Of a DNA stretch of 46,564 nt, positions 9,401 through 14,399 are shown one piece after another. The DNA lies in the NCBI GenBank assembly GCA_016213895.1, contig JACQZJ010000058.1, positions 1 to 46,564 on the forward strand, in the 5' to 3' direction. Every line of letters starts with the position of its first letter. Within the stretch, counting starts at the first letter, position 1. The notes under the pieces were generated by a model. It saw only the letters and a list, made by a program, of their open reading frames with translations. It was not told where the DNA came from and ran no database searches. Source of the DNA: Planctomycetota bacterium (GTDB lineage Bacteria; Planctomycetota; B15-G4; JADJEK01). The translations under genes were made by a program, and so were the position numbers.

Positions 9401-9595
9401 AACAGCGGCCTGAGCTACGAGTCGCTCGCCATCGCCACGCTCGGCGGCCTGATCCTCTCCACCCTCCTCACGCTCTTCGTCGTGCCCCTCTTCTACTCCC
9501 TTTTCGACGACCTGGGCCGCGTCTTCCTCAGCCCGCTGCGGCCGCGGGCCGCGCGCGACGCGGCAGAGCCGCCACCCGAGGTCACGGCCGCGTGA
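6458..9595 (+). CDS. RND-superfamily efflux permease, AcrB-like with 12 TM segments
   Basis: Length 1045 aa. N-terminal TM1 is followed by large periplasmic loops. The conserved TM4 region reads 'AIGMLVDNSIVVAENV'. The architecture is a duplicated half-transporter. No membrane-fusion-protein or outer-membrane-factor gene lies adjacent. Confidence 0.85.
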   Translation: MPETPAEDRREHPGFAALLGRPVTALMAFILIVLLGVVSYLRIPIMLLPKGIAASEMTIMVPCPDSSPTEVLEQVTKPLEDAIRTLPDVTEVNSESEASSARVSVSFAPNTDMDLAYNEIQDRIERTKPSFPEGVSDIRIWRWNSDVEMPIFWLGILYEDTVADPFGVVEEVIQPRFEAVDGVARVQIHGMVEDSVRVFVSPEALRSHGLSLYDVVATLRRDNFTLPAGSIDDGGREFLLRIEAGFHSLDEIRQYPIRENVQVQDVADVRIEKAYRDNVSRVNGYSSLTAVLNKESDENTVAVCQRVMAQIEEMKRDERLAGFQFNVYFNQADVIVSSLGNLKSSMGWGALFSLLILYAFVRRVAMTLMVALAIPVSLLAALVAVYFSGFTFNILSLAGFTLAIGMLVDNSIVVAENVARLRALGWKPFAAAASGAGQVGLAIILSTLTTIIVFTPLVFMAKERNTRILLGELAAPITYSLLASLLTALVFLPIATVQLSRRRTGRAAECAAPSAYSGASRLLSGYRRLLAFTLRHRFGVTVFTLAVIALGAQAWRGLQFSFEEGGHNDRLRIDVKLPRRFTLAEASAVFDQFEEFLLARRKEYQFEDLSVFFDRRRGEAGLWFDDDAPRPDSRQLSWRLREELPKIPGVEYEIGFEAEGAEAGVHVQLYGPDSVELTRIGDELVRELQRLPELSNVRTDVAEGFEELRVGIDRDRAQRFGVSQEILQGLIAWGVGGQRLAGYRGEEREIPLLIEYEEPQVGDLNYLRALDVPVDREGGSVPLAALTHYRFEKSLGSILRKDGITSLGVQADSYDKNSYRIQRKVAAVLEDFPFPEGYGWKDAGRREEFEEGLKEVGMGLFAGICFVFLLMGMLFESAILPLSVLLTIPLAMVGGILALFITRTPLDGMAQLAFILLAGVVVNNGIVLVDRIRQVQNAGMARTEAILTGCAQRVRPVLMTALTTIFGLLPMALPKVFASGTNSGLSYESLAIATLGGLILSTLLTLFVVPLFYSLFDDLGRVFLSPLRPRAARDAAEPPPEVTAA

Positions 9596-12041
9596 TCCCG
9601 GCCCCGCAGCGGGGCAGAATCTCCCGCGCCTCGGCAAGGCCATAGTTGAAGACGGTGAAGCCGCCGGTCTGGAAGCGGCGCGTGATCTGGATCTGCTCGA
9701 TGAGCGCAGAGATGTCCCCCCGCTCCGGCCACGTGCTCAGGCCGATGCCCGGATAGCACGGCACCGCCCCGGCCCAGCCGCGCTGCCGTTCGACCAGGGC
9801 CTCGAACTGGCCGGGATCCGGCGTGTAGTCCATGGGACAGACGAAGTCGAGGCAGCCCAGCTCGCACCACGCCTTCCAGTCCTGGCCGACGCCGTCGCGG
9901 TCGACCGGCCAGTTGGGGAATACGGCCGCCGAGACCTCCACCCCGGGCCGCCGCTCGTGCACGGCATCAGCCACGGCGGACACCACGCGCGTGATCTGGG
10001 CGCGCCGGAACTCCAGCCACTGAGCGTTGAGCGCGTCATCGCCCTGCACAACGGACGGCCAGCCGTCGACTCTGCGGCCGATGACCTGCTCGAACCGCCC
10101 GCGGCAGCCAGCGCAGAAGCAGCACTCGGGGCCGGGGTAGCGGATGTAGTCGAAGTGCACGCCGTCCACGGCGTACTTCGTGGCCACCTCGACCATGGCG
10201 TCGATCTCGAGCTGCTGATTCGCCGGGTGGGACGGACAGAGCCATTGCTCCTCTGACGTTCCATCGAAGCGCACCTGCGTGCGTCCCTCCCGGACCATGC
10301 GCTCGGCGAACTCCCGGGGCGCGCGGCCGCCCATGTTCCAGTTGACCTTCCAGACGTGGCACTCGACGCCGTGCGCGCGGCAGGCGGCCAGGCAGGCGGC
10401 GATCTGATCGCCCCGCTCCCGCACCTCGGGCGCGACCGGCAGCACGTCGCTCTCGTAGTACGCGACGCCGCCCCAGAGCATGTTGGGCAGGATCGCGGTG
10501 AAGCCGTTGGCAGCCAGGATCCCTATCGCTTCCTCCCACTCCAGGCCCGAGACGCCGAACGCATCGTGGCACCAGAAGGCGCGGTGTTCGCCGGGCTGGG
10601 GCTGTTGCACCTCGCAGAACAGGTCGATCAGTGCCGCGCTGACCCCTTCCGCCGAGGAGATCGCCAGGGCCACGTCCGTGCCCTCGGCCGCCCTGTCTCG
10701 GGCCTCCGCGAGCATGGCCTCGATCTCCTCGAGGCGCGCGAGCGCGCGGCCCTCGCCGCCGGCCAGCTTCCGGATGGCCGCGCTCGCCTCCTCGAATCCG
10801 GTGAAGGGAGCGATCGCGCCGGCGCTCGCCAGCGCGTGCGCCAGAGCCGTCTGCCGCAGGGACGGCGCCAGGTGACCGAGCATGGCCAGGACCAGCAGGC
10901 GGCGCGCGGCCGGATCGTCCACCAAAAGGACGTGCGTCATGAACACGCAGTTCGCGGAGGCGACGATCGCCGCCTGGCGCGCGCTCTGGCCCGCGGCGTC
11001 GAGCCACTCGGCGGCGACCTCGCTCTTCCCCTCGATCGCCCGCGCCTCGCGGATGTTCCATGAGCTCTGGCGGACCGTGTCCGGCATGCCCTCGAGCACG
11101 TTGCCGCAGGCGCAGAGCGCGGCGAACTGGCCCTCGCGCTCCTCCCGGACGTGCCGGCCGATCTCGATGCCAGCGACCTCCGAGAGCGGTTCCGGGAGGG
11201 TGTAGAAGGCGAGGATCTTGCCGCCCGCGGCAACGAACTCGCGCAGGCCCTCGACGGCCTCGGCCGGCATGGCCGGGTCGTACGGCAGGACCGCCACCAG
11301 CTTGCCCTGGAGCCGCTCCGCCGTCACGTCGAGATCGTCCATGAGGACGGCGGTCAGGCCGAGATCCGCGAGAACGCGGCCCACGGTCTCCGCGCAGGAG
11401 GTGATCGTCCTCGCCTCGCCCGGGTGGCTCCGCGCGGCCGAGGCGCCCCGGATCAACACGATCGGCGCGTCCTGCCCCAGGAGAGCGAGATCGGCCAGAT
11501 AGAACGCCGTGTCCGTGTCGCCGCCACGCCAGGCGGAAACGCGGATAGCGTCGATCTTGCCGAAGCCGGCAGGCGTCCCCTCGATCGCCGTCTCGCTCTT
11601 GTCGATTTCGACGGTCGACCAGCCGCCCTTGGCGCGCGGCGAGAAGCGCGCCGCGTACCAGCCGGAGCCGCTCCGGAAGTACAACGAGAAGCCCGACACC
11701 GGCGACACGTCACGAGAGAAGAAGCGGAACTGCACGCCCCGGCAGGCCACCAGGTCAAAATCGATGGACAGGTCCCAGGACGCGCGTTCGATGCGCGTGC
11801 CGGAGAAGTTGCACGGCAGCTTCAGGACGCGGCGCTTCCCCAGCGGCACGCACGTGACCGGCGCGGTGCCGCAGATCGGCGTCCACGCTGCTCGCGCGCC
11901 CTGCTCGCTCGGGTAGTCGAGGTCATCCAGGATGACGGCGCCCGGCACGGGGCGAAGCGGCGGGATCTCCTCGGCCGGGCACGGCATCGCGAGGCAGGAA
12001 GCAATCGCCAGAGCCAGCGGCAGAAGAAGGCGTCCGGCCAT
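9582..12041 (-). CDS. Secreted GHL10 (YngK/DUF187-like) glycoside-hydrolase-like protein with an N-terminal accessory domain
   Basis: Signal peptide 'MAGRLLLPLALAIASCLA'. The C-terminal half matches the GH10-like TIM-barrel family: 'VDGVHFDYIRYP', a CFCAGC insertion, and 'LDFVCPMDYT'. Its start ATG overlaps the hgcB stop (TGATG). Confidence 0.75.
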   Translation of the reverse strand: MAGRLLLPLALAIASCLAMPCPAEEIPPLRPVPGAVILDDLDYPSEQGARAAWTPICGTAPVTCVPLGKRRVLKLPCNFSGTRIERASWDLSIDFDLVACRGVQFRFFSRDVSPVSGFSLYFRSGSGWYAARFSPRAKGGWSTVEIDKSETAIEGTPAGFGKIDAIRVSAWRGGDTDTAFYLADLALLGQDAPIVLIRGASAARSHPGEARTITSCAETVGRVLADLGLTAVLMDDLDVTAERLQGKLVAVLPYDPAMPAEAVEGLREFVAAGGKILAFYTLPEPLSEVAGIEIGRHVREEREGQFAALCACGNVLEGMPDTVRQSSWNIREARAIEGKSEVAAEWLDAAGQSARQAAIVASANCVFMTHVLLVDDPAARRLLVLAMLGHLAPSLRQTALAHALASAGAIAPFTGFEEASAAIRKLAGGEGRALARLEEIEAMLAEARDRAAEGTDVALAISSAEGVSAALIDLFCEVQQPQPGEHRAFWCHDAFGVSGLEWEEAIGILAANGFTAILPNMLWGGVAYYESDVLPVAPEVRERGDQIAACLAACRAHGVECHVWKVNWNMGGRAPREFAERMVREGRTQVRFDGTSEEQWLCPSHPANQQLEIDAMVEVATKYAVDGVHFDYIRYPGPECCFCAGCRGRFEQVIGRRVDGWPSVVQGDDALNAQWLEFRRAQITRVVSAVADAVHERRPGVEVSAAVFPNWPVDRDGVGQDWKAWCELGCLDFVCPMDYTPDPGQFEALVERQRGWAGAVPCYPGIGLSTWPERGDISALIEQIQITRRFQTGGFTVFNYGLAEAREILPRCGAGITRP

Positions 12042-13509: not shown

Positions 13510-14399
13510 CCGCCGCCCCGGGCCGAGAGCGCGACGCCGTCCGGGCCCGCAGACGCGGCGAACTCACCGGCTGCAAGCGGGGCCAGGAGCCTGGCCAGCC
13601 GGGTCGCGGCCTCCTCGGCCCGCAGCCTGGTGGGGAAGTGGTCGACGCCGCGCGCCTCGGCGGTGATCGCGTTCACCAGGCCCCAGGCGCTCGGGTCGCC
13701 CTCCTCCTCGAACCGCTCCACGACGCGCCGCGCCTCGACCATCGGGTCGACGCGAGACAGCCAGACCTCGGGGTCGTCGACCGGGATGCTCGCAAGCGCG
13801 CGGGCCTCGCGGACGAACTCGTCCAGCGTCCGCCCCGCCAGACACAGGGACACCATCTCGCGAACCGGCGCGAAGCATGCCTGGACTTCCGCAAGATGCG
13901 CGTGGGGAACGACCTGCCCGTTCTGGCAGACCATTCGGTAGACTCGCGGCACGATCCGCACCTCCCCGCCTCCCTCGCTCAGCGCGGCGAAGCCGGCGCA
14001 GACGTCGTCGCCCTTCCTGACCGATCCCGCAGAGCGAGGCGTCATGGCCGCCACCGCCGTGTAGCCGTCCGGCACGTACTCGCAATGCACAAGGAGAACG
14101 TCCTGCCGACTCTGGAACCGCTGCTCCAGCTCGTCCCGGATCGAACTCACCCACTCCCGGTCGGCGCTGCCGTCCGGGAGCACTTCGAGCAGGTCCGGGT
14201 CCCCTCCCGCCTCGGCGACCTGCCGCAAGAGATCGGCGAAGAGCGCGCGGACGTTCCCCCTGGCATCGGCGTCGCCAATGCGGACTCGTCTCATCAACGC
14301 CGCATGGAAGAGGTGCAGGTTCGGCTTCCGGACGATTCGACCGAGGCGGCAGTGCATCACGCCCTCCCTTGGCTCAAGGTGTCTCTCCGCCACCACCAT
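13506..14399 (-). CDS. Hypothetical protein, translationally coupled upstream of hgcA
   Basis: About 297 aa with ordinary composition, and the stop overlaps the hgcA start. Weak, memory-based resemblance to DUF932-type proteins ('RMVCQNGQVV'). No confident family assignment. Confidence 0.55.
   Translation of the reverse strand: MVVAERHLEPREGVMHCRLGRIVRKPNLHLFHAALMRRVRIGDADARGNVRALFADLLRQVAEAGGDPDLLEVLPDGSADREWVSSIRDELEQRFQSRQDVLLVHCEYVPDGYTAVAAMTPRSAGSVRKGDDVCAGFAALSEGGGEVRIVPRVYRMVCQNGQVVPHAHLAEVQACFAPVREMVSLCLAGRTLDEFVREARALASIPVDDPEVWLSRVDPMVEARRVVERFEEEGDPSAWGLVNAITAEARGVDHFPTRLRAEEAATRLARLLAPLAAGEFAASAGPDGVALSARGGG

Follow-up and report, generated by a model that had tools for sequence, protein, structure and literature searches.

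Tight linkage of hgcAB to a divergent DUF932-fold gene and a GHL10-domain gene in a probable single transcription unit of a Planctomycetota bacterium

The window considered here, i.e., the whole stretch of DNA that was analysed, is a complete contig of 46,564 nucleotides (nt; 46.5 kb, about 70% GC) from a metagenome-assembled genome of a Planctomycetota bacterium (GCA_016213895.1, contig JACQZJ010000058.1). Between positions 9582 and 14399, its minus strand carries four open reading frames (ORFs) that are arranged head to tail and probably belong to a single transcription unit. In the direction of transcription, these are a gene for a protein of DUF932-type fold (designated UP in the following), hgcA, hgcB and a gene for an exported protein with a GHL10 domain; hgcAB is the mercury-methylation gene pair reportedly described by Parks et al. 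in 2013. Only one other genome with this four-gene block was found, GCA_020723465.1, in which it resides on contig DYIW01000076.1 (designated L001). The elements of the locus and, at the end of the list, two of its neighbours are as follows:

13506..14357, minus strand: UP, gene for a divergent DUF932-fold protein of 283 amino acids (aa), delineated by profiles, fold and alignment; the earlier ORF was 297 aa long (13506..14399)
12376..13509, minus strand: hgcA, gene for the corrinoid protein of mercury methylation, 377 aa (NF040863, PF03599)
13456..13467, minus strand: run of four Cys codons (residues 15-18) within the HgcA N-terminal extension, read from the sequence
12041..12358, minus strand: hgcB, gene for the 2x[4Fe-4S] ferredoxin of mercury methylation, 105 aa (NF040864, Fer4 Pfam models)
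9582..12041, minus strand: gene for an exported GHL10 (YddW/DigH/Cwp19-type) protein, 819 aa (PF02638)
14398..14426, minus strand: promoter-like element, with TTGACA at 14426..14421, a 17-nt spacer and GTGAAT at 14403..14398; conserved in L001
14362..14370, minus strand: Shine-Dalgarno-like sequence AAGGGAGGG, separated by 4 nt from the ATG at 14357 and unchanged in L001
14581..14657, minus strand: tRNA-Arg(CCG) (ARAGORN; Rfam RF00005, 63 bits), with a sigma70-like promoter match of its own at 14697..14669
6449..9595, plus strand: convergent gene for an RND (AcrB-type) efflux pump (PF00873, E 1.4e-183; ORF coordinates), given for context only

The distances at the three junctions between UP, hgcA, hgcB and the GHL10 gene are -4, +17 and -1 nt. 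The UP stop codon TGA (13508..13506) and the hgcA start codon ATG (13509..13507) share bases in a 4-nt overlap that reads ATGA; the hgcA stop codon (12378..12376) is followed by a 17-nt spacer containing GGAGGA, after which hgcB begins with the ATG at 12358; the hgcB stop codon TGA (12043..12041) and the ATG of the GHL10 gene (12041..12039) have a single A in common (TGATG). An in-frame GTG is located one codon 5' of the latter ATG, and the GHL10 protein is 820 aa long when counted from the GTG and 819 aa long when counted from the ATG. The four tightly spaced, co-oriented genes to which the initial annotation had drawn attention are real, and each of the junctions that it described is found in the sequence. 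All four ORFs exhibit a coding-type distribution of GC over the codon positions (GC at third codon positions, GC3, 0.86-0.89), and the plus-strand ORFs opposite 9582-14399 are shadow ORFs of the type usual in high-GC DNA. At the distal end, the 3' ends of the GHL10 gene and of the convergent RND pump gene overlap by 14 nt (9582-9595), and there is no space for an intergenic terminator; because of this overlap, the four-gene unit ends at the RND gene.

Both members of the hgcAB pair had been recognized in the initial annotation, and their identities are borne out by the NCBIfam equivalog cut-offs, which are passed by both proteins, and by the presence of the diagnostic motifs. HgcA scores 438.4 bits against NF040863 (cut-off 275), with positions 3-324 of the 325 model positions aligned to residues 49-376 and the membrane domain covered. 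Its cap-helix motif GINVWCAAGKGTFG, which contains the cobalt-ligand Cys128, agrees with the pattern N(V/I)WC(A/S)(A/G)GK, and in an alignment of 24 sequences the residues N125, V126, W127, C128, A130, G131 and G133 are invariant, while K132 is nearly so. HgcB scores 124.7 bits against NF040864 (cut-off 99) and possesses two CX2CX2CX3CP motifs, CNGCRMCVEVCP and CMECGACARNCP, and a C-terminal Cys-Cys pair (GPCCSPEDHGP). Judged from these features, this high-GC Planctomycetota genome carries a genuine hgcAB locus, and the pair is complete and apparently functional. In the NCBI annotation, HgcA is labelled 'acetyl-CoA synthase subunit gamma', and because of this public name the genome is probably missing from lists of methylators that are based on protein names.

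Residues 14-21 of HgcA read AACCCCGP, and the counterpart in the L001 protein reads APCCCGP. According to a preprint, the majority of HgcA proteins are extended at the N terminus by a segment containing the motif PCUGP (Cys-Sec), and packed cysteines are found in the non-selenoprotein forms (bioRxiv 10.1101/2022.07.06.499078). As read from the sequence, the run of four cysteines corresponds to this CU/CC motif of HgcA in its cysteine-only form. Its presence places the start of the protein either at the ATG at 13509, the first of the ORF, or at the GTG at 13500; both candidates are located within 6 nt of the UP stop codon, and start and cysteines alike agree with the reported CU/CC extension.

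The start of UP is most likely the ATG at 14357 (MHCRLGRI) and not the ATG at 14399, because the homologues begin at an equivalent M-x-(C/Y)-R-L-G, and because the strong Shine-Dalgarno sequence precedes the former codon, while the latter is situated inside the conserved -10-like hexamer. When compared with the Pfam model DUF932 (PF06067), UP scores 16.3 bits (E 0.0086), i.e., below the gathering score of 23. A word-indexed search with UP retrieved three relatives, and an exhaustive profile search retrieved 1433 proteins at E<=1e-3, 43 of them at E<=1e-30. DUF932 was matched by 14 of 43 sampled relatives (best E 1.6e-11), and the phage family phrog_1362 by UP itself (E 1.7e-6) and by 31 of 32 relatives. 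An AlphaFold2 model built from a 43-sequence alignment is confident, with a predicted local distance difference test score (pLDDT) of 87 and a predicted template-modelling score (pTM) of 0.83; it replaced a prediction made with four sequences (pLDDT 43), which was discarded. In a Foldseek comparison with models of viral proteins, 25 matches were obtained at E<=1e-3 (best E 7e-9, TM scores 0.4-0.55), many of which are named DUF932 or TIGR03299; the comparison with solved structures yielded no match. The invariant residues of the UP subfamily are D117, G122, P137, R138, R141, C144, N146, G147, N229, T232, A235 and E248. UP is a real gene and, as far as profiles and the predicted fold can tell, a chromosomal representative of a divergent lineage within the DUF932 superfamily that had not been assigned before. 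The DUF932 assignment suggested in the initial annotation consequently stands at the level of the superfamily, where profiles and fold agree, and fails at the Pfam gathering score. UP is now placed in a sizeable chromosomal branch (about 1400 profile matches) that the Pfam model misses at its threshold.

A spurious upstream ORF, arising merely as a long reading frame in a genome of 70% GC, would reduce the real unit to hgcAB and the GHL10 gene. Long shadow ORFs are indeed frequent in high-GC DNA, the product given for UP in the NCBI annotation is shorter (262 aa), and the Pfam score is below the gathering cut-off; against this stand a coding-like GC distribution (GC3 0.87; GC at second codon positions, GC2, 0.49), the 1433 profile matches with their invariant motifs, the confident fold, the conservation of the Shine-Dalgarno sequence and of the promoter-like element, and a ratio of nonsynonymous to synonymous substitution rates (dN/dS) of 0.54 in the comparison with L001. 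Taken together, alignment, structural model, codon-position GC and dN/dS effectively rule out that UP is a shadow ORF, and we regard this explanation as exceedingly improbable. UP is at the same time the least constrained of the genes compared, as dN/dS amounts to 0.21-0.38 for the other three genes of the unit and to 0.20 for the RND pump.

The initial annotation had also suspected a GHL10 protein downstream of hgcB, and PF02638 confirms this with 67.4 bits against a gathering score of 27.9 (residues 505-757; positions 23-278 of 311 in the model). The approximately 500 N-terminal residues have no Pfam assignment. The protein begins with a hydrophobic signal sequence containing a lipobox-like IASC at residues 13-16, which reads LASC in L001. 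Within the first 40 residues, such a motif occurs in only 12 of 120 members of the family (P0125-P0244), and most members appear, from their sequences, to have ordinary signal peptides; one source names family members 'uncharacterized lipoprotein YddW'. Full-length relatives of about 815 aa with 50-59% identity are widespread in Planctomycetota, Phycisphaerae, Verrucomicrobia and Sumerlaeota, and the family is one of glycan-hydrolase-like proteins that are secreted or belong to the envelope. E. coli DigH is the YddW protein, a member of the same Pfam family. DigH is described as a glycosyl hydrolase required for the separation of daughter cells (PMC12288456). The sole solved relative detected by sequence is Cwp19 of C. 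difficile (PDB 5oq2), with a marginal E of 0.002.

Upstream of UP, the element TTGACA-17-GTGAAT has a counterpart in L001 that reads TTGACA-17-GTCAAT (region L001 2260-2328). A consensus promoter scan skipped this element in the window, as the rule for the -10 hexamer demands an A at position 2; from its sequence and conservation, we infer that it acts as the promoter of the unit. In the leader upstream of UP, no cobalamin riboswitch, other riboswitch or Rfam element was found. Terminator-like matches occur only inside the coding sequence of the GHL10 gene (three, which does not exceed the chance level of 1.4 +/- 1.3), and no terminator-like signal was found at any gene junction. The four genes agree in strand, in close spacing and in the lack of an internal terminator with what defines an operon, and gaps of -4, +17 and -1 nt are too small to accommodate a promoter or terminator of any individual gene between them. 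The four genes probably constitute a single transcription unit. Transcription would most likely start at the conserved element upstream of UP and would run through all four genes to the convergent RND gene, and the overlaps would couple the translation of neighbouring cistrons. HgcA, as the corrinoid methyl carrier, and HgcB, as the ferredoxin, would act as they do in characterized methylators, while UP and the GHL10 protein would be found in the same unit by an accident of gene order in this lineage.

The comparison with L001 bears on how this gene order is to be understood. The four proteins are 73-84% identical in aa sequence to those of the window, the RND pump is 93% identical, and the synonymous divergence (dS) is 0.2-0.44, approximately 0.3; hence, the two genomes are close relatives. 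Collinearity extends past the four genes into the RND pump gene and the next gene, with an extra 568-aa PMT_2-like gene situated in L001 between the GHL10 gene and the RND pump gene. UP and hgcA do not overlap in L001 but are separated by a 12-nt spacer. In a pairwise alignment, the similarity between the two contigs stops about 25 nt upstream of the promoter-like element, and the sequences further upstream are unrelated; L001 carries an FG-GAP repeat gene and no tRNA upstream of UP. Since the window and L001 are so little diverged, the fact that they share a gene order is hardly informative as to function.

The tRNA-Arg(CCG) gene that the initial annotation had placed about 180 bp from the unit is present on the same strand, 181 nt from the ATG at 14399 and 223 nt upstream of UP, and was regarded there as compatible with horizontal acquisition. 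Spelled out, UP and hgcAB, with or without the GHL10 gene, would be an acquired islet inserted at this tRNA, and UP would be what is left of the vector. Proteins with a DUF932 fold characteristically occur in phages, plasmids and integrated elements, and the one functional hint comes from a DUF932 gene on an integrated plasmid, which was found mutated under phage selection (bioRxiv 10.1101/2025.06.20.660599); the synteny with L001 breaks right at the tRNA; the distribution of hgcAB is generally ascribed to horizontal transfer (PMC7438021); and the best HgcA matches outside the clade come from several phyla at similar identities of 55-64%, as is usual for hgcAB. These points are opposed by the lack of any signature of such an event in the window. 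The only second copy of the 3' end of tRNA-Arg(CCG) within three mismatches is part of the tRNA-Arg(TCT) gene (27424..27447) and is no attachment (att) repeat, and a repeat search revealed no convincing flanking repeats. Neither the four genes nor the scanned flanking genes contain integrase, recombinase or other mobile-element domains, and the tRNA is followed directly by UP itself. The initial annotation had further proposed to compare the composition of the cluster with that of its flanks, and it is typical of the contig: the GC content of the region 9582-14399 is 0.70-0.73 versus about 0.70, GC3 lies within the range of the contig, and the tetranucleotide correlation (r 0.88) matches that of sliding windows over the contig (0.868 +/- 0.035). 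Moreover, UP had no match in tblastn searches of plasmid and phage collections, its homologues reside in ordinary chromosomal contexts, and L001 carries the block without the tRNA. Acquisition at the tRNA is consequently unlikely in our view, and the suggestion to this effect finds no positive evidence; an old, fully ameliorated transfer is possible, above all in view of the HgcA matches from several phyla.

The initial annotation had cast the upstream protein as a candidate accessory factor for HgcAB, and had named as the observation that would speak against a link that homologues of UP and of the GHL10 gene never stand beside hgcAB elsewhere. This is essentially what was found, the one exception being the close relative L001. 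A set of 80 hgcA loci from different GTDB species and more than 15 named phyla or candidate divisions, with HgcA proteins 46-61% identical to that of the window, contained no UP-family or GHL10-family ORF in the flanks, as judged by phmmer and by profile hidden Markov models at E<=0.01; at least 1 kb of upstream sequence was available for 75 of these loci, and at least 3 kb of downstream sequence for 47. At P0008, whose HgcA (61% identity) comes next in similarity outside the clade, a DsrE gene stands upstream and a beta-lactamase/TPR gene downstream. Conversely, UP homologues with 29-41% identity reside in six unrelated chromosomal contexts without hgcAB (L003, L089/L090, L091, L092, L093/L094, L095), with no partner gene conserved across the six, and a locus scan with a UP-family profile built from four sequences detected no more than two metagenome contigs, both of them short. 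Outside the clade, the three closest homologues of the GHL10 protein likewise have unrelated neighbours, some of them carbohydrate-active (GH106, fucosidase), and no hgcAB. In three of the six UP contexts, a pair of genes for an extracytoplasmic function (ECF) sigma factor and a Ser/Thr kinase is situated no more than a few kb from the UP homologue (L003 1-4304; L091 6904-8230; L093/L094 6018-8326). ECF sigma factor/kinase pairs are very numerous in Planctomycetota, and their proximity may be due to chance. An 812-aa gene near the UP homologue of L003 was considered as a GHL10 relative, which would have pointed to an insertion of hgcAB between the two flanking genes of the unit, but proved to be unrelated.

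Close spacing downstream of hgcB is not restricted to this locus. In a rough, ORF-based count over 66 evaluable hgcAB loci, a same-strand gene follows in 38, and in five of them it begins no more than 20 nt from the hgcB stop codon; two of these five neighbours have no Pfam match, and the other three encode a metallo-beta-lactamase, an NAD-dependent epimerase and an SBF/Acr3-type transporter. According to published work, the surroundings of hgcAB are highly variable: some genomes (112) have an ArsR-like regulator there, and the pair is otherwise 'flanked by numerous hypothetical proteins' and by metabolic genes unrelated to it (PMC7438021); in archaea, a PrlF/AbrB-like gene tends to replace the ArsR-like gene (PMC10349881). 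Given this variability, an unfamiliar set of neighbours is to be expected. The remark of the initial annotation that the arrangement is not the described one is correct in so far as the four-gene layout is uncommon among hgcAB loci; the tight coupling of hgcAB to an idiosyncratic neighbour is a minority arrangement and no new phenomenon.

A functional four-gene module, in which UP, the GHL10 protein or both would be a lineage-specific accessory, regulatory or coupled partner of HgcAB, has to be weighed against these data; UP might, for example, stand in place of the ArsR-type regulator or serve as a maturation factor. In its favour are the overlapping or nearly overlapping junctions behind one conserved promoter-like element, the position of UP at the usual site of ArsR with no ArsR-like gene there, and the fact that the block is intact in L001 while the sequence immediately upstream differs. 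The absence of co-occurrence beyond two close relatives (80 loci and P0008) and the six UP and three GHL10 contexts without hgcAB argue against it, as do the comparatively relaxed constraint on UP, the absence of the UP-hgcA overlap in L001, and the lack of a recognizable DNA-binding domain in UP, for which Pfam and NCBIfam searches returned no match to ArsR/HTH_5 or any other helix-turn-helix (HTH) or DNA-binding domain. Furthermore, DigH (PMC12288456) and Cwp19 (PDB 5oq2) act on peptidoglycan glycans, which is unrelated to mercury chemistry. We therefore hold such a module to be quite unlikely, and the proposal of an accessory role for the upstream or the GHL10 protein finds no support in the 80 loci, in P0008 or in the contexts of the homologues. 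The chance that one promoter drives hgcAB together with the DUF932-fold and GHL10 proteins and that one or both of these proteins have a functional connection to HgcAB is, in our estimation, slim. Were this the case, the DUF932 superfamily would gain its first functional lead, and there would be a fresh clue to what HgcAB natively does.

The interpretation that we consider likely is that of a probable single unit transcribed from the conserved promoter-like element, whose gene composition is lineage-specific and probably incidental, i.e., an ordinary local arrangement and not a new mercury-methylation system. Several observations do not sit easily with it. Tightly packed genes on the same strand are more often functionally related than not; the 1-nt overlap between hgcB and the GHL10 gene is kept in both genomes; the synteny break falls exactly upstream of the UP promoter region, and the four genes form the end of the conserved block. 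Only two genomes of the lineage are at hand, and a lineage-specific function is possible. With these points considered, we infer that no functional link ties UP and the GHL10 protein to HgcAB. Conserved neighbours would be valuable clues to the native function and the regulation of HgcAB; because the neighbours found here are not conserved beyond one close relative, they offer no clue to the role of HgcAB.

Elsewhere on the contig, the RND pump gene is preceded by an ORF of 762 aa (4113-6401, plus strand) with no Pfam match and about 84% aa identity to its counterpart in L001; its internal degenerate repeats of approximately 37 nt may specify a peptide motif rich in aromatic residues. The contig has four further tRNA genes (27371-27447; 30632-31069): tRNA-Arg(TCT) stands alone, and those for His (GTG), Arg (TCG) and Lys (CTT) form a cluster with distances of about 100 nt. 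In a 1243-aa ORF (16497-20228, minus strand), the C-terminal two-thirds, beginning with the signal peptide MRLTWIALSVVSLAFLPGRAAAQ, resemble FG-GAP/VCBS-type repeats, and the N-terminal third is probably a non-coding extension.

When viewed in the context of known systems, the locus shares with canonical hgcAB the equivalog scores, the cap-helix motif NVWCAAGK, the position of hgcB 17 nt after hgcA, the 4Fe-4S motifs and the Cys-Cys pair, and its N-terminal CCCCGP is the Cys form of the reported PCUGP. It differs from canonical hgcAB in its DUF932-like and GHL10-domain flanking genes, set at -4 and -1 nt, and in that no upstream ArsR-type regulator is present. In Pseudodesulfovibrio mercurii ND132, arsR, hgcA and hgcB are co-transcribed, according to Gionfriddo et al. 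2023 (cited in PMC10349881); the locus studied here resembles that of ND132 in having a small same-strand gene directly 5' of hgcA, which is probably co-transcribed, but this gene is of the DUF932-type fold, lacks an ArsR/HTH_5 domain and is not found upstream of 80 other hgcA genes. UP in turn shares with DUF932, TIGR03299 and phrog_1362 proteins the fold, the core motifs PR..R..C.NG and WGL.NA.TA.AR, and a link via intermediate relatives; unlike most phage members (300-450 aa), it is only 283 aa long, and, unlike the DUF932 proteins of phages and plasmids, its subfamily is chromosomal and stand-alone with variable contexts. The GHL10 protein, finally, agrees with DigH of E. coli, Cwp19 of C. 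difficile and YngK of B. subtilis (PF02638) in its TIM-barrel-type domain, which scores above the gathering threshold, and in being exported, with an N-terminal signal peptide; it differs from DigH and Cwp19 by the roughly 500 additional N-terminal residues and, for Cwp19, by a match that is marginal, and, in contrast to the YddW/DigH lipoproteins, the lipobox is not a conserved property of its family of about 815-aa proteins.

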